64,000 bases of DNA from an uncultured Gammaproteobacteria bacterium (GCA_964504985.1 CAZDFU010000003.1:822-64821); one strand, 5' to 3'; counted from the stretch's first letter, positions 44,285 to 63,171 are shown. Numbers and translations are program-made. The notes: a model not told the origin generated them from the letters alone.

Positions 44285-44357
44285 GTGGGCAGTAAGGGAC
44301 TTGAACCCCTGACATCGTTCACGTCAAGAACGCGCTCTACCAGCTGAGCTAACTGCC
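44285..44357 (-). tRNA. tRNA-Val (anticodon GAC)
   Basis: Minus-strand GGGCAGTTAGCTCAGCTGGTAGAGCGCGTTCTTGACGTGAACGATGTCAGGGGTTCAAGTCCCTTACTGCCCA; cloverleaf with 7-bp acceptor, TTGACGT anticodon loop. Confidence 0.9.
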
Positions 44358-44441
44358 CTAAAATTTCAATGAATCACAATGCAATTTCAAACTATGATGA
44401 TCCGAAGGTTATTTTATGTTATGACTATAATTTATTCAAGT

Positions 44442-53654: not shown

Positions 53655-56600
53655 ATGTACAAAGGAAAAATGAAAAAAATATTTCAAAAACTAATATACA
53701 TTTTTGCTGCAGCCTTAATTGTTTTTTACCAGGTTGCGCCTATTGGTTTCTCCCTCAGTACAGTTTTGGCAAAAGATGGCGAGGAAGAAGTTGCTTCTGA
53801 AAATAAAACTGATAACTCAGGTTCCAGTTCAAATGGAGATTCTCAGCCTGAAAGTAATTCATCCGGATCAGGTTCATCTGGGTCTGGTTCATCTGGCAGT
53901 TCTGGGTCTGGCAGCGGATCTTCCGAACCCGCTCCCCAACCTGCAACAACAGAACCTGTACCTGTTGCCACTAATAATGAAGCCGTTCAACAGGAAACTG
54001 CACCAGTAAATATTGTTCAAGAGCAAACCGCACCAGTTAATGCTGTGGAAGTACCGGAAATAATTGCTCCTGTGGTACCTGTAACAAATGAGGTTGAGGA
54101 TGTGAAAAACGGCGGGGTTATTAAAGATGCACCTGGTGATACAGTGAGGCCAACAGATCCAGTGGTAACAACAGAGGCTCAAGCAGGAGCTCTGGCCCCA
54201 GAGACTGCACCGCAAGATCCCATCCCTGCCCAGGCAGACACTTTAGTTGAACCTGTAGAACCCGCCGTAGAAACAGTTACTTCTGCAGTAAACACCATAA
54301 CCGGGCCAGTAGAAACAAGCATTAATACAACATCTGTGAGCAGCCCAACAAGCATTGCTGGTGTAGTTGATCAGGTAAATGGTTTTCCGTCTGCTTATCA
54401 AGACAAATTAGGCATAGCTGTTATCCCCTGCCTTGATGGATCAGACCCTAATTGTGTCTTGCCAGGAGCAGGTGAAGAAGAAGGGTTTGATCCTTCCCAA
54501 CCAACTGCTTTAGGTACTAACTTTCCATCAGAATTTTTCTACTGGATTGCAGAATCTGAACCATTAACTACTCCAAATGGAGGTAAAACTTTTATCAGGA
54601 CAGCTTTAGAAGGAGCCTTCCTGAATGAAGAACCAATCTCAACAGATCAGATGGTCTTTGGCAGAATCAGAGTAACAGGCACAGGTTTAGAACCAAACTC
54701 TACCTACATTGTCACCCATCCTTATGGAATTGATACTTACAAAACAAATGATGTAGGTATTATTGCAAGAGGAGAAGGAACAGAAGATATTGGTTGTGAG
54801 GTCAAGCCTTGTGACTTTACTAAAGCATTAGATAGCAGAATCTTTGATGGGTTCCTACAAATGTCTGAAGGTGCACCAGTTGGTTATCTCGGTGATGCAG
54901 CAACAGCAGCAGAAGTAACAGGAAGTCCTTTAGGCCAAAATTCTTATAGAATTGAAGGCCCAGGTTTACCATTAGGAGGTTTGTTTACCAACCTTTTCAC
55001 TGTAGCAGGTAAATTACTTTCTGGCCTTATTACCCCAATTTCTGTGGAAATCCCAGCTAACCAGCCAGCTCCTGTTAATGAGCAAAATGGAGCGGCGGGT
55101 CCAATTGATGATTCAAATGGGTTTCCTGCATCTTACCAGGATCTTTTGGGTACAACTGTTATCCCCTGCCTTGATGGATCAGACCCTAATTGTGTCTTGC
55201 CAGGAGCAGGTGAAGAAGAAGGGTTTGATCCTTCCCAACCAACTGCTTTAGGTACTAACTTTCCATCAGAATTTTTCTACTGGATTGCAGAATCTGAACC
55301 ATTAACTACTCCAAATGGAGGTAAAACTTTTATCAGGACAGCTTTAGAAGGAGCCTTCCTGAATGAAGAACCAATCTCAACAGATCAGATGGTCTTTGGC
55401 AGAATCAGAGTAACAGGCACAGGTTTAGAACCAAACTCTACCTACATTGTCACCCATCCTTATGGAATTGATACTTACAAAACAAATGATGTAGGTATTA
55501 TTGCAAGAGGAGAAGGAACAGAAGATATTGGTTGTGAGGTCAAGCCTTGTGACTTTACTAAAGCATTAGATAGCAGAATCTTCCAGAGTTTACTGGAATG
55601 GGATGTCCCTCTGCTTAATGGTTATCTGGGTGATGCTATAACTCCACACACTGTTATGGGAAGCCCAACAGGAAACAACTTCTTCAGAATAGAAGGACCA
55701 GGATTGCCTATTGGGGGACTATTAACTAACCTCTTTACAGTAGCAGGAAAATTAGCAGGAGCTATAGGAGGGGTAGTTGATAATATTTTACCAACAGAAG
55801 AGCCTGTTATAGAGGAAGGAACAACTGCTGAGGAAGATATGGTAGAGCCAATTATGGATACAGACCCAGCAGATGAACTTATAGCAGAGGATCTACTTGT
55901 TGGAGGACCTACCGCTGAGGAGGGAACAGGAGAAGACCCAATTAATGAGGCTGAAGATACTCCTGATGCAGAAATTGAAACTCCTGTGGCAACTGAGGAT
56001 ACAGTTAATGAACCCGTGGGGGAGGTAGTAGTTTCCCCTGCTAATGAAGATGAGCAAGAAACAAATGAAGAAGAGCAAGAATCAGAAGAAACAGAAGAAC
56101 CAGAAGCACCAGTTACTGTTATTCCTGGAAATGAAGATGAGGTAGAAGATAATAATGGGACTAATACTGAGGAAGAGGTTATTCAAGAAGAGATTATTCA
56201 AACAGTAGAAACTATCCTTGCAGATCCACTTGACCAGCTTCTTAACACAAACAGCCAGGAAGAAGCATCAGAGCAAGTAACTGCTTTTCTTCAACCAGCT
56301 ATTGTTGAGGCAATAAATAACCAAGCAAACACAACTGAAGATAATACTGTTTTAGCAAGTAATAATTCCTCAGCTGCACAAACAAACAACACCACATCTG
56401 AGTCTGCTGCCAGCTCAAATAATAATTCCAGCTCAGTATCAAATAATACTAGCAGTCAATCATCAAGCTCAGATAATAACCAATCATCTGGTTCAACTAA
56501 CCAGTCATCTGGCGGGATTGAGGCAGGACAAAAAACTAGTGCAGAGGAGGCAAAAACTGGAGAAGAAAATAAAACTCAGGTATTGTCAGTACAAATTTCC

Positions 56601-56789
56601 CAAACCGCAGAAGATAACTCATCTGAGATTTTTGAACAAGCTGAACAGCCTGAGCAACCAGAACAATCAGATTCAAGTGAAGTAACCTCAGAAGAAAAAG
56701 AAGCAGGGAAAAATCCTATAGGCATAGTTTTAGCTCTAACCGGCTTAGCTATCGCAGGAGGGTTTTTCTCCAGACGCTTTATTGTCTAA
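53655..56789 (+). CDS. Large secreted/surface protein (1044 aa) with S/G-rich and acidic low-complexity regions, internally duplicated 142-aa module, C-terminal hydrophobic anchor
   Basis: N-terminal signal/TM. SGSGSSGSGSSG linker. Two identical copies of VIPCLDGSDPNCVLPGAGEEEGFDPSQ...CEVKPCDFTKALDSRIF. C-terminal LALTGLAIAGGFFSRRFIV. Confidence 0.7.
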   Translation: MYKGKMKKIFQKLIYIFAAALIVFYQVAPIGFSLSTVLAKDGEEEVASENKTDNSGSSSNGDSQPESNSSGSGSSGSGSSGSSGSGSGSSEPAPQPATTEPVPVATNNEAVQQETAPVNIVQEQTAPVNAVEVPEIIAPVVPVTNEVEDVKNGGVIKDAPGDTVRPTDPVVTTEAQAGALAPETAPQDPIPAQADTLVEPVEPAVETVTSAVNTITGPVETSINTTSVSSPTSIAGVVDQVNGFPSAYQDKLGIAVIPCLDGSDPNCVLPGAGEEEGFDPSQPTALGTNFPSEFFYWIAESEPLTTPNGGKTFIRTALEGAFLNEEPISTDQMVFGRIRVTGTGLEPNSTYIVTHPYGIDTYKTNDVGIIARGEGTEDIGCEVKPCDFTKALDSRIFDGFLQMSEGAPVGYLGDAATAAEVTGSPLGQNSYRIEGPGLPLGGLFTNLFTVAGKLLSGLITPISVEIPANQPAPVNEQNGAAGPIDDSNGFPASYQDLLGTTVIPCLDGSDPNCVLPGAGEEEGFDPSQPTALGTNFPSEFFYWIAESEPLTTPNGGKTFIRTALEGAFLNEEPISTDQMVFGRIRVTGTGLEPNSTYIVTHPYGIDTYKTNDVGIIARGEGTEDIGCEVKPCDFTKALDSRIFQSLLEWDVPLLNGYLGDAITPHTVMGSPTGNNFFRIEGPGLPIGGLLTNLFTVAGKLAGAIGGVVDNILPTEEPVIEEGTTAEEDMVEPIMDTDPADELIAEDLLVGGPTAEEGTGEDPINEAEDTPDAEIETPVATEDTVNEPVGEVVVSPANEDEQETNEEEQESEETEEPEAPVTVIPGNEDEVEDNNGTNTEEEVIQEEIIQTVETILADPLDQLLNTNSQEEASEQVTAFLQPAIVEAINNQANTTEDNTVLASNNSSAAQTNNTTSESAASSNNNSSSVSNNTSSQSSSSDNNQSSGSTNQSSGGIEAGQKTSAEEAKTGEENKTQVLSVQISQTAEDNSSEIFEQAEQPEQPEQSDSSEVTSEEKEAGKNPIGIVLALTGLAIAGGFFSRRFIV
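54418..55582 (+). repeat. Perfect 427-bp direct tandem duplication (units 54418-54844 and 55156-55582, period 738 bp) within the surface-protein gene
   Basis: Line-by-line identical DNA between the two units. Confidence 0.85.
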
Positions 56790-56942: not shown

Positions 56943-57026
56943 TAACAAATCAGCCGGGATGCTGGAATCGGTAGACAGGCTACCTTGAGGTGGTAGTGCC
57001 CGCAAGGGCGTGGAGGTTCAAGTCCT
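56943..57026 (+). tRNA. tRNA-Leu (anticodon GAG), class II
   Basis: GCCGGGATGCTGGAATCGGTAGACAGGCTACCTTGAGGTGGTAGTGCCCGCAAGGGCGTGGAGGTTCAAGTCCTCTTCCCGGCA. Confidence 0.85.
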
Positions 57027-58544
57027 CTTCCCGGCACACGAGCCGACCAAGTCGGTTTCAAATTGACGAATAGATTGATATATCGGGCTAATGTGGGTGT
57101 TGTCTAAGCTCTTATAGTCCCAAACCAGTCCGGAAGGGCTTATTGAACACATAAGCACACGAATCTGGCTAAGAGTAGACATTTGATAAGTTTGAGGAAG
57201 ATTTGCAAACTTCTCTTTCATAAACTTCACAATTGATTCAAGGTTATATTTTGCGAGGAGTGCATCATCTTTGGTAACTTGAACAGCAGCAATTTGATCT
57301 TCAATTAGCTTATTCTGTTCTTTGAAGATTTCATCCGAAAATACCCCACTTAAATTCTTCTGAATAAGTGCTTGGCGCATTTCATAGAGTCTTTTTAGCT
57401 CACTATCTGCTTGCTCTTTTCTTTTTTGGAGTTGGGATACTCTTTGATAATAAATTCGTCTTAAAAGAGCTATAAAAGCATCCAGTGCTTGTTTGGTAGG
57501 AGTAATAGTGGATAAGAATTGTAAAGCAGCATTATTGAGCTTGTAAGCCTGTATTGAAGGCATTTTACAGCCATGCTGACATCGGTAATAAGCATATCTA
57601 GCTTTTTTTCCTTTACTCCATCCGCCAGTTAAGGGTTGTTTACATATTCCACATATAACCAGCCTTCGTAGAGGGAATTCAGTATTGTCTTTATTTCTTC
57701 TTGCCACAGGAACATGGAGATTGGTATTTCTGCCGTCTATTACCGCTTGTACGCGATAAAACATCTCTTCAGTAACCATCGCCACATGTTGTCCTCTAAC
57801 TTCCTCCGGATACCGTGTAGAAGTTAGTATGCCGATATAATATTTGTTTCTAAACATCACACTCAGAGCTTGTTTCCTGATTATGTTTTCCTTGCCTTTA
57901 TATCTTTGGGTTACACCCCATTCATTCATCAACTCTGCCATTTCCTGAAGAGTTTTGGTACCAGTTGCCATTAATTTCCAAGCCTCAACAACTTTATCCC
58001 AAGTTTTTGTATCTTTGACTATATAGCCACTTTCACTTTTATAGCCAAGTGGTGGTGTGCCACTGGTAAGTCCAGCTAAAAACCTAGCTCTTAGTCCATT
58101 TTTAGTACGTTCGCTTCTGATATCATTATCCATCTGAGCAAAACTGGCAAGCATAGTTTCTACAAACTTTTCTGTGGCACTGTTTCCAGTAGGTTCAGAA
58201 GTAGATAAAAGTGCTATCTGGTATTCAGTAAGCTTTTTCTTAATTGCCAAAAAGTCTCCAACCTGACGTGAAAGTCTATCTAATCGGTAAACAATCAACG
58301 CATCAATATTTTTCTTATTTCTCCTGCAAAACTCCATCATCTCAATAAGTACAGGTCTGCCAGTGATATTTTTGGCTGATCGGCCTTCTTCTTTGAAGAC
58401 TTGGATAATCTCAAGCCCTTTACGTTCTGCTTCTTGAGCACAGATTCTCTCCTGAGTTTCCAAAGAGAAGTTATCTACTTGTTCTTCTGTTGAAACTCGA
58501 AGATAAACAATTGCTTTTCTAGATTCTGATTTAATTAATGCCAT
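57018..58544 (-). CDS. Large serine recombinase (phage-type serine integrase)
   Basis: N-terminal resolvase domain AIVYLRVSTEEQ (catalytic Ser). Recombinase domain. Zinc ribbon CGICKQPL...YYRCQHGC. Coiled-coil C-terminus. Confidence 0.8.
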   Translation of the reverse strand: MALIKSESRKAIVYLRVSTEEQVDNFSLETQERICAQEAERKGLEIIQVFKEEGRSAKNITGRPVLIEMMEFCRRNKKNIDALIVYRLDRLSRQVGDFLAIKKKLTEYQIALLSTSEPTGNSATEKFVETMLASFAQMDNDIRSERTKNGLRARFLAGLTSGTPPLGYKSESGYIVKDTKTWDKVVEAWKLMATGTKTLQEMAELMNEWGVTQRYKGKENIIRKQALSVMFRNKYYIGILTSTRYPEEVRGQHVAMVTEEMFYRVQAVIDGRNTNLHVPVARRNKDNTEFPLRRLVICGICKQPLTGGWSKGKKARYAYYRCQHGCKMPSIQAYKLNNAALQFLSTITPTKQALDAFIALLRRIYYQRVSQLQKRKEQADSELKRLYEMRQALIQKNLSGVFSDEIFKEQNKLIEDQIAAVQVTKDDALLAKYNLESIVKFMKEKFANLPQTYQMSTLSQIRVLMCSISPSGLVWDYKSLDNTHISPIYQSIRQFETDLVGSCAGKRT

Positions 58545-59407: not shown

Positions 59408-59894
59408 ATGAGTAATATTGAAATAACAACTCTTTCATCTGAAAATTGGGAAGAATACAAAAATCTTAGGTTAACGGCTCTTAAAGAAAATCCAGAGGCT
59501 TTCGGTTTATTGTATGAAGAAGCTAAAGAATACTCTAAAGATAAATGGTTAGACCCTCTTGTAGAAGCAGAAAATGAGGAAAAATAAATGGATACTTTTT
59601 GCAAAGTTAAATGGAAAACTAGTTGGAATGATTAGTGGAAGTGTAATAGATGGAGATACTGTTAAATTAGGTGAGGTATTTGTTGCTACGGAGGCAAGAG
59701 GTATGGCTCTCGGAAAGAAACTTCTGGAAACTTTAATCAGTAAAATCACTAAATACCCTGAATTAAAAAAAGCTAAAGCAAAAGTGTTTACAACTCAAAA
59801 AGCAGCGTTAATCTATATGAAAGCTTTGGTTTTGAAACATCGGAGACAATTACAGAACACTGGCCAGATGGAAGAACTCATGAAACGTTTATAA
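59408..59894 (+). pseudogene. GNAT-family N-acetyltransferase interrupted by frameshift in an A-run
   Basis: Frame A 59408-59587 (MSNIEITTLSSENWEEY...EAENEEK*) and frame B 59574-59894 (…LFAKLNGKLVGMISGSV…VATEARGMALGKKLLE…) join at gaggaaaaataaa. Confidence 0.55.
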
Positions 59895-60037
59895 TGTATA
59901 AATCTTTACAATAGAGAGGAAAATCAAATATTTGGCAGAAGATAGAGTAATTTTAAAAATTAGCAATTACTTAAACCTTTTCTATTTATGGTAAATTTTG
60001 CCCATGACTCATTCTGCTTATCTTCCCTTCTAAGTAA

Positions 60038-62122
60038 TTAGATTTTTTTATAATATTCTTCAACTCTTTTTGCTATTTCAGTTAAAGGTAAGCCATTCTC
60101 TTTCCCATGTGTTTCTAATTCAGGATCAGTTGGTTCAAATATCCATGATTGAAAGCCTATCATGCCGGGATTATTTTGCGTGTTTTGGCCTTTATCGTCA
60201 ATAATCGGTACATCAAAAAGTTTTTTGAAAATGGGAGCAATTCGTTTACCTGAGGCGATATCAAAAGGTTCAAAATCATCATCATTAAATTCCCTCTCAT
60301 GTTCCAAACTATAATCTACAAAATCAGCTACAACTTGCGCAATAATATCTTCTTTTTGCTTATAATCATGTTCACCTCCTGCGATAAGGTAATTTTGCTG
60401 TGCCATTAAAACAATGTCATCCTGCCATAAACCAAAATCAGTTAGATATTTCTGTATGCGATCTCTTGCAGTTGCATCTGTACAGATAACAACAGTACCT
60501 ACTTTACGTAACCTATCTAGAAGCTCTTTCGCTTCAGGATTTGGAACTTTCGGCCCATCGTTGTTTATAAGAACATTATTTAGATCAACCACAATAGGTT
60601 TAGGAATTGTGCGTAATAACTCTAAGGCTTTTTTATCCCAAGCAAAGCCCCTCTTTTCAAAATAACCATTCAATTCAGCGATAGTACCTTTCAAGTTCTC
60701 CTGCTCTGAAGCTTCTTGTTGAGATTCAGCAGGTTTCTCTAAATAAGCCCTAGCAAGTAGCCCGTCTGATACGACACGGAGCGCAGTATCCTTACCGCCC
60801 TCTGTTACTGCCTTCCGTATTCGATCGATATCAGATTCTCTAAAAGAGGCCATGCCAATATGCTGATTTATGATTTCGTATAATTCTGGTCTCGCATTCC
60901 ATAGCATGTCCGCGTGTGCAGAATTAGGCATGATAGCTGAATGAGTAAGTTGAACATCGGACCCCTCTATAAAAGCACCTAAAAAATTTTCTGGAGGATG
61001 AGCATCCTTGGTCAGTACCCCAAGGTATATACCAACTGTTCTTTCGGGGGTTTGTGGAACAAGAGTGATTGGTTCTCTTCTATAAAGGGCGTTTTGGTGT
61101 CCATAAGATGTCTTATGCCAGGTCTGGAAAGTTTCATCATGTTTTGTAAAAAAACGAACTTTCCTTGTAGCATCAAAAACACCGTTAACGATGGCCGATT
61201 GAGCGAGTAGTTCTGGAGCAGTGTTTGTCTCCCGCTCTTCTTGATCTATAGTTGTTGGTATTTTACTCGATATTTGTTTCGGTGAAGGACGTACCTGTAC
61301 TAGATTATAGAAGCTAGGAATGTTCGGGTCAAAGATCAGCTCTAATTGAACACCAAAATCAATCCCTGTTTTTTTAATAGCAGCAAATAAATCAACAACA
61401 AAGGGATTTGCTGCCAAGTCGTTATATCCGAGAAGAGATTTATGAAAGCTTCTGGTGGGAATAATTGGTTCGCCAGTTTCTGCATCCCAAGCTCCTACAC
61501 CAGCTTCCGCATCCTCTGTAGCGGATGTAAACGCTCTCCCGCGCTCATTGCCAGAAGCTACTCTGGCAACCACCTTTCCTTCTAATGAACTATAACCGAT
61601 GTCTATTACTAAGCCTATCCCTTTAAGTGCATTCTGCACAACAAATGGTATTTCTGGTAATTCGCTACGTTTTTGCGCATCTTCAAACTTTCTTCGTGTG
61701 TCGTAATCAGTTAAGTTAAAGCTTCTAAATGTACCACTTTGACCATCAAGCCAATCTTCAGTAAGAGAAGAGCTGCGAAACATTGCGTTAGGATGAGCGG
61801 CAGGATGGACAGATTTAACATCTTTGACTATAGACCACCCGGGCACATCAAGCCCTACACCTGACGAAGATCGTCGAAAATTTTCACTAATCATCTTGCA
61901 AACTACTAACCCAAAAGCTTTCCCCCCTCCGTTGCGTAACGTATTTTCAAGACCTTCTTTAGTGTGTGGATATCGGGCAAGTCGAGTAGTAAAAGCATCG
62001 AGGTTTGCTTGCGTATACTGCCATCTATCCAAAGCAAACTCTGGCTTTTCTGAGTTTTCTGATTCGTGCCTGACAGCGTATTGCTCTGGTGTGGTTGCTG
62101 GTTGTGGTTCATTCATACTCAA
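60038..62122 (-). CDS. PEP-utilising-enzyme N-terminal (PPDK/PEP-synthase ATP-grasp)-like domain fused to C-terminal HAD-like domain (694 aa)
   Basis: GGGKAFGL, VPGWSIV, MFRSSSLTEDWLDGQSGTFRSFNL (cf. RSSATAEDLP..SFAGQ..T). C-terminal IVVDLNNVLI...VVICTDA...K(x)nDFVD HAD-like arrangement with degenerate motif I. Confidence 0.5.
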   Translation of the reverse strand: MSMNEPQPATTPEQYAVRHESENSEKPEFALDRWQYTQANLDAFTTRLARYPHTKEGLENTLRNGGGKAFGLVVCKMISENFRRSSSGVGLDVPGWSIVKDVKSVHPAAHPNAMFRSSSLTEDWLDGQSGTFRSFNLTDYDTRRKFEDAQKRSELPEIPFVVQNALKGIGLVIDIGYSSLEGKVVARVASGNERGRAFTSATEDAEAGVGAWDAETGEPIIPTRSFHKSLLGYNDLAANPFVVDLFAAIKKTGIDFGVQLELIFDPNIPSFYNLVQVRPSPKQISSKIPTTIDQEERETNTAPELLAQSAIVNGVFDATRKVRFFTKHDETFQTWHKTSYGHQNALYRREPITLVPQTPERTVGIYLGVLTKDAHPPENFLGAFIEGSDVQLTHSAIMPNSAHADMLWNARPELYEIINQHIGMASFRESDIDRIRKAVTEGGKDTALRVVSDGLLARAYLEKPAESQQEASEQENLKGTIAELNGYFEKRGFAWDKKALELLRTIPKPIVVDLNNVLINNDGPKVPNPEAKELLDRLRKVGTVVICTDATARDRIQKYLTDFGLWQDDIVLMAQQNYLIAGGEHDYKQKEDIIAQVVADFVDYSLEHEREFNDDDFEPFDIASGKRIAPIFKKLFDVPIIDDKGQNTQNNPGMIGFQSWIFEPTDPELETHGKENGLPLTEIAKRVEEYYKKI

Positions 62123-62304: not shown

Positions 62305-62550
62305 TTAGTTTTTGGATCTGTTATTTAAGACTTCTGTGGCTACTTTTTGCATTTCAGTTACCAAAGATTCAATATATTCTTGGTTATTTATCTTTTCTGG
62401 TGTATATTTTGCAACATTTTCTTTAACAATTTCCGTAGTTTTGATGCGATCTGAAACTACTGCATGTAAAGTCTCGCTGTTTAACGATTCACATAATTCT
62501 TTGCAGAATTGATAGTTCGGGTTTGATTGCAAATCATCTGGTACACTCAT
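62305..62550 (-). CDS. Hypothetical small protein (81 aa), divergent from XRE regulator
   Basis: ORF; Cro-like position. Confidence 0.35.
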   Translation of the reverse strand: MSVPDDLQSNPNYQFCKELCESLNSETLHAVVSDRIKTTEIVKENVAKYTPEKINNQEYIESLVTEMQKVATEVLNNRSKN

Positions 62551-62575: not shown

Positions 62576-62806
62576 GTGAGCGCAAACTATCTCGATAAGA
62601 TGTATAATATAGATGTTATGGGTTTCAAAGAAGATAACGCTAAGAAATTTAAAAAAGCTCGGGAGGATCAGAGTCTTACTCAAGCTCAAGTTGCTAAAAG
62701 GGCAAAAATAAGCACCAATTACTACGCACGAATTGAGAGAGCTGATCCTGAAGCCAGAGGGAATGTTTTAGATAGAATTGCGAAGGCTCTAGGGGTAAAG
62801 CTATAA
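62576..62806 (+). CDS. XRE-family helix-turn-helix transcriptional regulator
   Basis: LTQAQVAKRAKISTNYYARIERA (Cro/C1 HTH). Confidence 0.7.
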   Translation: MSANYLDKMYNIDVMGFKEDNAKKFKKAREDQSLTQAQVAKRAKISTNYYARIERADPEARGNVLDRIAKALGVKL

Positions 62807-63013: not shown

Positions 63014-63086
63014 GGAGTCGTAGCTCAGTTGGTAGAGCGTCTGATTTACATTCAGAAGGTCACAGGTTCGAGACCTGTCGGCTCCA
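63014..63086 (+). tRNA. tRNA-Val (anticodon TAC)
   Basis: GGAGTCGTAGCTCAGTTGGTAGAGCGTCTGATTTACATTCAGAAGGTCACAGGTTCGAGACCTGTCGGCTCCA. Confidence 0.85.
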
Positions 63087-63171
63087 CATTCGAAGATGGC
63101 GGGGGTTCAAATCCCTCAGTACCCACTTGATTCCAGTGGCACTGCCCTGTGATATACTAAATCTTACTTTT

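Follow-up and report, generated by a model that had tools for sequence, protein, structure and literature searches.

A probable minimal relative of PEP synthase and PPDK from the Candidate Phyla Radiation, one copy of which carries an orphan C-terminal tail

The stretch of DNA considered here comprises 64,000 nucleotides from the assembly of an uncultured Gammaproteobacteria bacterium (GCA_964504985.1, CAZDFU010000003.1:822-64821); this whole stretch is referred to as the window, and positions are counted from its first letter. Its minus strand carries an open reading frame (ORF) at 60038-62122, which an initial annotation made from the sequence alone had described as a cargo gene encoding an N-terminal ATP-grasp domain of the pyruvate phosphate dikinase (PPDK)/phosphoenolpyruvate (PEP) synthase type fused to a haloacid dehalogenase (HAD)-like domain. 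The frame is open as described, giving 694 aa from a TTG codon, and all of the strings quoted for it are present in the translation (GGKAFGL at residues 66-72, VPGWSIV at 93-99, RSSSLTEDW at 116-124, SGTFRSF at 129-135 and VVDLNNVL at 511-518). A database protein of 692 aa, P0001, is 100% identical to the ORF product and begins MNEPQ at an ATG codon at 62116. Because a Shine-Dalgarno-like AAAGGTG (3 nt before the TTG at 62122 and 9 nt before the ATG) and a TATAAT are found just upstream, the ATG is likely to be the start in preference to the TTG. Residue numbers are given in ORF numbering throughout, and numbering in P0001 is two lower (His403 is His401). The gene shows no compositional foreignness, its codon-position GC being that of the genome background, with GC at third codon positions (GC3) of 0.286 as compared with 0.288 +/- 0.038 for the window. 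No riboswitch or other RNA was found upstream of the gene at Rfam gathering scores.

A homologue search returned 23 proteins, mostly 400-475 aa in length, which cover only residues 1 to ~465 of the product (the first ~65% of the query). When the family profile was run exhaustively with HMMER over 1.84 billion cluster representatives, 115 representatives were obtained, 92 of them at E < 1e-30, and the canonical PPDK_N superfamily, which is very large, was not reached at any point. Judged by these searches the proteins form a small, closed and unannotated family, the database labels of its members being either no name at all or 'hypothetical protein'. The conserved core is ~430 aa long and ends at '...VSDGLvg.iyl', around residue 464. 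When each GTDB species was scanned in one genome, 14 loci were identified. The named sources are metagenome-assembled genomes (MAGs) of Saccharibacteria, Uhrbacteria, Parcubacteria, Paceibacterota and Magasanikbacteria, all members of the Candidate Phyla Radiation (CPR), and a few auto-labelled third-party annotation (TPA) assemblies among the sources are designated 'Gammaproteobacteria'. Because all of the named loci are CPR MAGs, the family is assigned to the CPR/Patescibacteria. One MAG, CAYUTM01, contains two paralogues of the family on separate contigs (L025 and L033).

Conservation was counted in 92 family representatives with pairwise identity of no more than 50%. The gene and the features of its conserved core are as follows, where RPH denotes rifampin phosphotransferase and A3 a sister family described below:

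60038..62122, minus strand: the whole ORF, 694 aa from TTG at 62122 or 692 aa from ATG at 62116, with the stop codon at 60038-60040.
61232..62044, minus strand: divergent PPDK_N-type ATP-grasp domain, residues ~27-297, assigned from AlphaFold, Foldseek and hhalign to the sister family.
61907..61927, minus strand: GGKAFGL motif, in which K68 probably corresponds to Lys22 of PPDK/RPH, aligned with the GGK of the sister family and of PpsA.
61751..61777, minus strand: RSSSLTEDW motif, in which R116 probably corresponds to Arg117 of RPH-Lm and the motif to VRSSATAED of PEP synthase.
61280..61354, minus strand: GVQLE ... LVQVRPSP, aligned in register with D-I-E-W ... L-Q-A-R-P of PPDK_N (Q259, E261, Q276 and R278), where we take the E, Q and R of PPDK to be Mg- or phosphate-binding residues.
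60731..61231, minus strand: divergent phospho-histidine 'swivel' domain, residues ~298-464, assigned from the structural model and profile links.
60914..60916, minus strand: CAC codon of His403, the predicted phospho-acceptor, conserved in 92/92 and aligned with the A3 histidine.
60752..60775, minus strand: VVSDGLLA, containing the S-D-G motif of the family (452-454) at the end of the swivel domain and matching '..v.vDG..G.V' of PEP-utilizers.

The relationship of the N-terminal domain to PPDK_N was established by way of a protein found near the bottom of the exhaustive search list. This protein, P0118 (433 aa), matched the family profile at E 1.7e-5, and when compared with a 92-sequence family profile it scored 51 bits (E 9e-9, database size 1.8e9) over two aligned blocks, in which GGK, VP, RSS..ED, VQ.RP, VNG, the histidine and VSDG are all in register. 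P0118 also matches Pfam PF01326 at E 2e-23 (83.5 bits, the cut-off being 27 bits). A search for its relatives, referred to as A3, gave 25 more proteins of ~400-460 aa (P0125-P0149) and four more distant matches, with PF01326 present in 30/30 of the A3 search matches. The named A3 sources include Woesearchaeota, Nanoarchaeota and Micrarchaeota (DPANN archaea), and one member was labelled 'phosphohistidine swiveling domain-containing' by JGI. By these Pfam scores A3 is a bona fide PPDK_N family. The CPR family alignment (A1) and A3 are matched by hhalign with a probability of 98.8% (E 1.3e-16, 252 columns), rising to 99.1% (E 1.6e-18) with the 92-sequence core. The A3 profile in turn finds solved structures of PEP synthases (8a8e and 9dae, E 2e-16) and of rifampin phosphotransferase (5fbs, E 4e-12).

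Structure prediction, which had been proposed as a check on the initial annotation, gave a confident ATP-grasp fold followed by a second α/β domain. In the AlphaFold2 model, run with the 23-sequence alignment, residues ~25-460 mostly have a pLDDT of > 90. Foldseek searching of the PDB produced 186 matches at E <= 1e-3, and among the best 50 of these nearly all are ATP-grasp enzymes. The top matches were Ddl, MdnC, PsnB, CPS and PurK (E ~1e-5, ~230 columns), while RPH 5fbs was found at rank 29 (E 4e-5) with 339 columns, among the longest of the alignments. As modelled, the fold is that of an ATP-grasp enzyme, and Foldseek alone is not decisive as to which kind.

Residues K68, R116, D123, G130, S178, E261, R278, P279 and H403 are conserved in 92/92 representatives, and Q163, Q259 (89/92), Q276 (91/92) and S134 are conserved at 88-99%. 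Because K68, R116, D123, E261, R278 and P279 are invariant, the N-terminal motifs are not attributable to chance, as far as sequence conservation can tell. In RPH the phosphates of ATP are positioned by Lys22, Arg117 and Thr136, and Mg is bound by Glu297 (PMC4844700); the aligned equivalents of these four residues are K68, R116, S134 and E261. The assignment of the N-terminal half to a PPDK/PEP synthase-type ATP-grasp domain was thereby borne out indirectly, through the sister family, AlphaFold and Foldseek.

The initial annotation had seen no recognisable phosphohistidine swivel domain in the protein. This is contradicted by the second domain, and the swivel-histidine search that the same annotation had suggested led to His403, which is invariant and aligned with a catalytic histidine. 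When residues 298-467 were modelled alone an α/β domain was obtained with a pLDDT of 85. Foldseek gave weak matches for this domain to MccF/LD-carboxypeptidase, a PA domain, LeuD and Enzyme I (rank 41), with TM scores of ~0.35-0.46; these we take to be swivelling beta/beta/alpha domains of SCOP fold c.8. The phospho-histidine domain of PPDK and Enzyme I also belongs to this fold. The model is thus compatible with a swivel domain and falls short of proof. In the HMM alignment of P0118 to the family profile, His403 falls on the invariant histidine of the sister family, which is itself aligned with the catalytic histidine of PEP synthase 8a8e and of PpsA. The alignment of A3 with 8a8e passes through the swivel domain, at '..GGRTSHAAIVSRELG..'; A3 '..sdlgrhHdleiaRkkg..iktGdtvrvvSDGvkgfvY' is aligned with 8a8e '..DEGGRTSHAAIVSRELG..LKTGMYVTV--DGTRGLVY'. 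In hhalign comparisons the last ~110 residues of the CPR family are paired with the A3 C-terminus at 93.8% (E 1.7e-7), and the A3 C-terminus matches a mobile-domain alignment at 86% (E 4.9e-6), with histidine on histidine. This mobile-domain alignment of PEP-utilizers and its PPDK_N counterpart, each comprise 9 sequences and were taken from plasmid-borne genes. The S-D-G motif near the end of the domain is conserved in most representatives (S452 in 87/92, D453 in 91/92 and G454 in 90/92). By these alignments the swivel domain is divergent but present, and its histidine is invariant. We hold the two domain identities jointly with high confidence.

A PEP/pyruvate TIM barrel (PF02896) is absent from the protein, by Pfam and AlphaFold, and from the rest of the 64-kb window, by tblastn, and no rifampin-binding or other substrate domain is placed between the ATP-grasp and swivel domains, which abut. 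The core can be read as a stripped-down relative of PEP synthase, PPDK and RPH, in which a PPDK_N-type ATP-grasp domain is directly followed by a phospho-histidine swivel. Because it has neither a TIM barrel nor a rifampin-binding domain, it is to all appearances a 'mini-dikinase' core without a built-in acceptor site. The fold, the transitive family membership, the architecture and the invariance of the catalytic-equivalent residues are shown by these results, and the mechanism is drawn from the chemistry of the superfamily; the latter applies to autophosphorylation on His403, to an AMP-forming dikinase stoichiometry and to any role of the C-terminal tail.

In RPH, the swivel His825 attacks the beta-phosphate of ATP and is thereby pyrophosphorylated; it then gives up the gamma-phosphate and takes the beta-phosphate to a second site (PMC4844700). 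By analogy, Mg-ATP would be bound in the ATP-grasp cleft through K68, R116, S134, Q163, Q259/E261 and Q276/R278. The swivel domain would then dock, allowing His403 to attack the beta-phosphate and become (pyro)phosphorylated, after which the domain would swing away and pass the phosphoryl group to an acceptor outside the conserved core. In this copy the 230-aa tail could act as an acceptor-binding or product-processing module, possibly a cap-less HAD-like one in which the nucleophile Asp513 is kept and an Asn occupies the acid/base position. The protein is therefore proposed, with moderate confidence, to be an ATP-dependent two-domain phosphotransfer enzyme of a new CPR-restricted family, autophosphorylating on His403, with a unique and possibly HAD-like tail in this copy.

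Several results weigh against this proposal. The PF01326 profile match on which the initial annotation had staked its assignment was not obtained, as a Pfam-A scan of the protein gave no PPDK_N, PEP-utilizers or HAD match even at E <= 10, and none of the 23 homologues scanned singly in Pfam matched PF01326 or PF00391. PF00391 likewise had no Pfam match in the protein, and the A2 profile had no match in the PDB. Searching all PDB chains with phmmer produced no match, an HMM of the 23-homologue alignment found no dikinase in the PDB, and an NCBIfam scan gave noise-level matches only, among which YqeG HAD-IIIA (E 0.068) was the best of any relevance. When compared directly by hhalign, the family scored z 2.3 with the PPDK_N alignment and z 1.5 with the mobile-domain alignment, neither of which is above column-shuffled controls; with E. 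coli PpsA alone only the RSS..ED stretch was aligned, at a probability of < 1%. At zero threshold (-mact 0) every motif is collinear with PPDK_N and with the mobile domain, the latter over the full domain, yet these alignments are statistically weak and do not reach significance. In the Foldseek ranking dikinases do not stand above the remaining ATP-grasp enzymes, and for the second domain its best match (E 7e-3) is non-specific, at the level of fold class. The hhalign match between the family and A3 spans the ATP-grasp domain, the start of the second domain and the last ~47 columns, and the suggested equivalence of the two histidines draws on one HMMER alignment and on the insignificant zero-threshold hhalign. 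Lastly, the neighbourhood is not conserved across 15 loci of the family, and neither an acceptor nor a partner gene came to light. Because the direct comparison with PPDK_N is not significant, the claim of homology rests on the intermediate family; the kinship so obtained is transitive but, to judge from the profile scores on either side of A3, strong.

A different role for the same two domains is suggested by VadK (Rv1127c) of M. tuberculosis, a truncated PPDK with only the ATP-binding and histidine domains, described as having evolved from PPDK (PMC13400623). VadK autophosphorylates with Mg-ATP at a predicted site, His422, and has interactions with methylcitrate-cycle enzymes (PMC13400623). 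The CPR protein could be a regulatory histidine kinase or phosphocarrier of this sort, which acts on partner proteins or merely binds them and has no small-molecule substrate, with the tail serving for docking or being unrelated. The shared two-domain architecture and the core without a substrate domain both speak for such a role. However, VadK has what its authors call an operonic partner, Rv1126c (PMC13400623), whereas no neighbouring or operonic partner is conserved in the CPR family. The fusions to phosphatase-like folds described below (a weak His_Phos_1 match and weak HAD matches) would fit metabolite or phospho-ester chemistry at least equally well. As the first half-reaction would be common to this explanation and to the phosphotransfer enzyme proposed above, the two overlap in part, and we regard a VadK-like regulator as unlikely, if worth keeping in view.

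The C-terminal tail is confined to the copy in the window. Its features are as follows:

60041..60730, minus strand: residues 465-694, made up of a linker helix and an orphan C-terminal extension that may form a HAD-like Rossmannoid domain without a cap.
60569..60592, minus strand: VVDLNNVL, resembling HAD motif I, with D513 at the nucleophile position and Asn515 at Asp+2.
60470..60493, minus strand: VVICTDAT, resembling HAD motif II (a hydrophobic strand ending in Thr), from the NCBIfam alignment and a low-confidence AlphaFold strand at 542-545 (P0001 numbering).
60182..60205, minus strand: IIDDKGQN, resembling HAD motif IV (a strand followed by DD), from motif reading only, without profile support.

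The 230 aa of the tail are absent from all 114 other matches of the exhaustive profile search, and the tail-bearing P0001 is a one-member cluster from one contig. No homologues of the tail were found by a word-indexed protein search with the C-terminal 229 aa, a weak negative as the search missed even the identical P0001, nor by scans, with tblastn confirmation, of contigs from GTDB genomes and JGI metagenomes. The tail matches nothing in Pfam or the PDB. Its pLDDT is low (30-60) because there are no homologues from which to build an alignment, and the alternation of helices and strands in the model is compatible with a Rossmannoid fold and not diagnostic of one. With NCBIfam, YqeG HAD-IIIA matches the tail at E 0.068, 0.016 or 0.0023 depending on the fragment used, far below the curated cut-offs. 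For a 73-aa fragment over motifs I and II, 3/4 of the matches are HAD families, all sub-threshold: YqeG HAD-IIIA (E 0.0023), mannosyl-3-phosphoglycerate (MPG) phosphatase (0.061) and HAD-IIB-MPGP (0.1). Each of these sub-threshold matches begins at motif I of the profile and covers motifs I-II only. Motif I of the tail, IVVDLNNVL, fails the pattern hhhhDxDx[TV], as Asp513 is present and Asn515 replaces the Asp+2 acid/base. By eye the order of motifs fits a cap-less HAD protein (hhhhD513-L-N515-N-V-L, a helix, VVICT548, ..., GK-R and VPIID643-D644), and the end of the tail may resemble HADs of the FCP/SCP type. The HAD-like layout that the initial annotation had proposed for the last ~180 aa therefore stands as to the degenerate motif I string, and is unproven as to fold: the HAD profile search that it had called for gave no match in Pfam and matches at E 0.0023-0.1, below cut-offs, in NCBIfam. 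We put a HAD fold of the tail at roughly even odds.

The tail might also be a recent accident, produced by read-through into, or fusion to, a formerly separate downstream (HAD-like) gene, or artefactually, through an error of assembly or a frameshift in an island undergoing decay. It is unique to a single sequence, as noted, and its composition is unlike that of the core (GC 0.358 vs 0.430, GC3 0.239 vs 0.310). The adjoining GNAT acetyltransferase gene has two frameshifts at or near homopolymers (about 59585 and 59815), and the motif-I-like string is situated after a 45-aa linker, whereas it is normally at the very N-terminus of a HAD protein. However, an open frame of 230 codons would be expected by chance in DNA of 36% GC with a probability of ~6e-8, as computed from base composition, AlphaFold predicts a continuous helix across the junction, and appended domains are also seen in other members of the family. 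An accidental origin of the tail is an improbable but live alternative.

These other appended domains are N-terminal extensions of ~250-290 aa found in six sequences from close relatives (P0002, P0007, P0009, P0025, P0027 and P0113, the last truncated). In 4/6 of them (P0007, P0009, P0025 and P0113; ~290 aa, alignment A4) the extension contains invariant RHG, SSPxxR and HxE strings, which are reminiscent of histidine phosphatases of the PGAM/SixA type. There was only one His_Phos_1 match to the N-terminal extension, at E 0.0023, and a profile search of the PDB with the A4 extension gave no match. The extension of P0002 and P0027 differs from that of A4 and is unassigned. If both assignments hold, the mini-dikinase would have been fused independently to two phosphatase folds that work through a covalent phosphoenzyme, which is the least secure of the leads obtained. 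Taken further, the CPR, with a sister form in DPANN, might have a dedicated minimal ATP-to-histidine module of dikinase descent that is joined to varied covalent-phosphoenzyme folds, such as the HAD-like domain of this copy and the RHG domain of its relatives, as a new phosphorelay or kinase-phosphatase cassette, an idea we offer as speculation and consider doubtful. Were it true, a His-to-Asp or His-to-His relay would exist in ultra-small symbionts, phosphorylating or salvaging a host-derived metabolite or a surface polymer.

The surroundings of this copy bear on the description of the gene as mobile cargo. The following features were identified around it:

56953-57037, plus strand: tRNA-Leu(GAG), from ARAGORN; the Rfam tRNA model is below its gathering score there.
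57018..58544, minus strand: phage-type large serine integrase with Resolvase, Recombinase and Zn_ribbon_recom domains, matching the phrog_95 integrase at E 6e-75.
59408..59915, plus strand: GNAT acetyltransferase in three frame segments; Pfam Acetyltransf_1 matches the middle piece only (E 2.7e-10, profile positions 36-108).
62305-62550, minus strand: small DUF2750-like ORF, matched below threshold by DUF2750 (E 4.6e-4) and by the PADLOC model of Csn2 (E 1e-4).
62576..62806, plus strand: XRE/Cro-type helix-turn-helix regulator, divergent from the DUF2750-like ORF, from Pfam, PADLOC and PHROG scans.
63014-63087: tRNA-Val(TAC), directly before the orphan tRNA 3' half.
63091-63127, plus strand: orphan tRNA 3' half (T-arm and acceptor), sharing ~80% identity with the corresponding half of tRNA-Val(GAC) (44285-44358).

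The stop-proximal 3' 20 nt of the integrase gene overlap the last 20 nt of tRNA-Leu(GAG), as would be expected of a tRNA that receives its 3' end from an integrating element. No direct repeats of the tRNA-Leu 3' end that could serve as att sites were found elsewhere in the window. The orphan tRNA half resembles the scar of an old attachment site on the right-hand edge of a segment of ~6 kb, beyond which glmS probably starts at ~63173. Within this segment there are also two small ORFs without an assigned identity. The GNAT gene is divided into an N-terminal piece at 59408-59587, with a stop after GAGGAAAAATAA, a middle piece at 59574-59894 in another frame, and a C-terminal piece from 59813 in the first frame (LYESFGFE...FIMYKS); it may be either a pseudogene or the product of homopolymer assembly errors. 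The tRNA-flanked, integrase-bearing segment as a whole looks like a decayed integrative element. The XRE regulator also resembles control and CapH-type regulators of defence systems, and the pair that it forms with the DUF2750-like ORF is located immediately upstream of the promoter region of the mini-dikinase gene. To the left of the tRNA-Leu is an ORF of 1044 aa on the plus strand (53655-56789), whose product has a hydrophobic segment at the N-terminus, a hydrophobic anchor at the C-terminus and low-complexity regions that are rich in Ser/Gly and in acidic residues. A direct repeat of 300 nt within this ORF (54357-54656 and 55095-55394, 92% identical) duplicates a ~245-aa module; the product has no Pfam family match and is probably a surface protein.

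With an integrase abutting a tRNA, an XRE regulator and a tRNA-half scar in the same ~6 kb, the mobile element of the initial annotation is plausible for this copy, and the GNAT gene that it placed next to the ORF is there, although broken into three pieces. It had gone on to compare the arrangement with antibiotic and small-molecule phosphotransferases. On such a reading an RPH-like enzyme would be carried as mobile cargo, its HAD-like tail and the GNAT being part of a drug-modification locus. The protein does belong to the same superfamily as rifampin phosphotransferase, and that superfamily also includes HpeHI and MarK, which are reported to be two-component small-molecule dikinases (PMC12167813; PMC12624787). 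Against this, no rifampin- or other substrate-binding domain is present, the swivel following directly on the ATP-grasp domain, and the GC3 of the gene is that of the background. PADLOC and PHROG scans gave no match to the mini-dikinase protein itself. The family is confined to the CPR, where members in other genomes adjoin ScpAB/MurG, SecDF/Maf and L27/L9 genes with no conserved neighbour among the loci compared, and it has no relatives in phage records (50,697), plasmids (72,556) or IMG/VR. Taken as a whole, the family is not mobile cargo, its members elsewhere being found among housekeeping genes, and the mobile-cargo framing of this copy is, like the HAD nature of its tail, unproven. The protein is apparently no resistance determinant, a role in modifying antibiotics is without support, and we consider a cargo phosphotransferase very improbable. 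Least probable of all, to the point of being hardly credible, is a generic ATP-grasp ligase (carboxylate-amine or -thiol, like Ddl or the RiPP macrocyclases) with an unrelated C-terminal domain and a convergent, noise-level likeness to PPDK_N, for while the top Foldseek matches are such enzymes and CPS rather than dikinases, and direct profile comparison with PPDK_N is not significant, the family has strong transitive homology to a PF01326-positive family and thence to PEP synthase and RPH, the PPDK_N signature positions (GGK, RSS..ED, VQ, xxE and QxRP) are collinear and invariant, AlphaFold shows no Rossmann-like pre-ATP-grasp N-domain, and an invariant histidine is carried on a second, swivel-like domain.

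On the reading of the protein as a His403-dependent phosphotransfer enzyme, ~100 clusters of CPR 'hypothetical proteins' that were missed by Pfam, NCBIfam and PDB profiles would gain an assignable fold, an active-site histidine and a half-reaction. The bacteria of the CPR and the archaea of DPANN have a minimal metabolism and depend on hosts, and both of these ultra-small symbiont radiations carry related minimal dikinase-like proteins. A conserved ATP-driven histidine phosphotransfer protein without an acceptor domain would be either a regulator like VadK or a dikinase of an unidentified substrate, and either would add to what is known of CPR and DPANN physiology. As to method, the motifs gave the right answer that profile HMMs had missed, and its proof required a bridging family.

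Among known systems, the two-component small-molecule dikinases HpeHI and MarK (PMC12167813; PMC12624787) and glucan, water dikinase (GWD) are of the same superfamily and use the same swivel-histidine mechanism. The swivel of HpeHI is found on a polypeptide of its own, where it is fused to a substrate-binding domain of RPH type (PMC12167813). Across HpeHI, MarK and GWD, ATP-grasp and histidine modules are joined to varied acceptor modules, whether in cis or in trans; in GWD these are carbohydrate-binding modules (CBMs). The CPR core differs from HpeHI and GWD in having no recognisable acceptor module, unless the orphan tail plays that part.

PEP synthase (PpsA; 8a8e, 9dae and 2ols) and PPDK have the same domain order as the CPR family, ATP-grasp and then swivel histidine, with a collinear set of motifs (GGK, VP.gf, RSS..ED, VQ, xxE, LQ.RP, the histidine loop and DG..G.V). 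They differ in possessing the PEP/pyruvate TIM barrel. In addition, the helical insert between GGK and RSS is ~50 aa shorter in the CPR family, the histidine motif is N-[ST]-x-H-G as opposed to G-G-x-T-S-H, and the first acidic residue of D-x-E is replaced by Gln. RPH (5fbs) likewise combines an ATP-grasp domain and a swivel histidine, and its GGK Lys, RSS Arg and Mg-binding Glu are invariant in the CPR family. However, it has a ~450-aa rifampin-binding domain, absent from the CPR family, between the ATP-grasp domain and a C-terminal swivel that is found at ~794-864 in reference RPHs.

VadK, as it has been described, shares the two-domain layout, the want of a PEP/pyruvate domain and a core of ~430-490 aa, and its half-reaction at His422 would, by analogy, be the one proposed here for His403. 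It is PPDK-derived and belongs to the Actinomycetota, whereas the CPR family is invisible to Pfam and PDB profile searches, has no operonic partner and, in the copy described here, bears the additional 230-aa tail. The closest detectable relatives are the DPANN A3 proteins (e.g. P0118, P0128 and P0135; ~400-440 aa, labelled 'PEP/pyruvate-binding domain-containing'), with an hhalign probability of 99%. Unlike the CPR family, A3 still scores on Pfam PPDK_N and aligns to solved PEP synthases; its histidine motif, 'LGxHHDxEIAR', is nearer to the canonical one, and it does not have the CPR-specific TSATxDxE and EDW motifs. The A3 proteins, which are also uncharacterised, are otherwise of the same size as the CPR proteins, with the same two-domain layout free of a PEP/pyruvate domain, and like them are found in ultra-small, host-dependent lineages.

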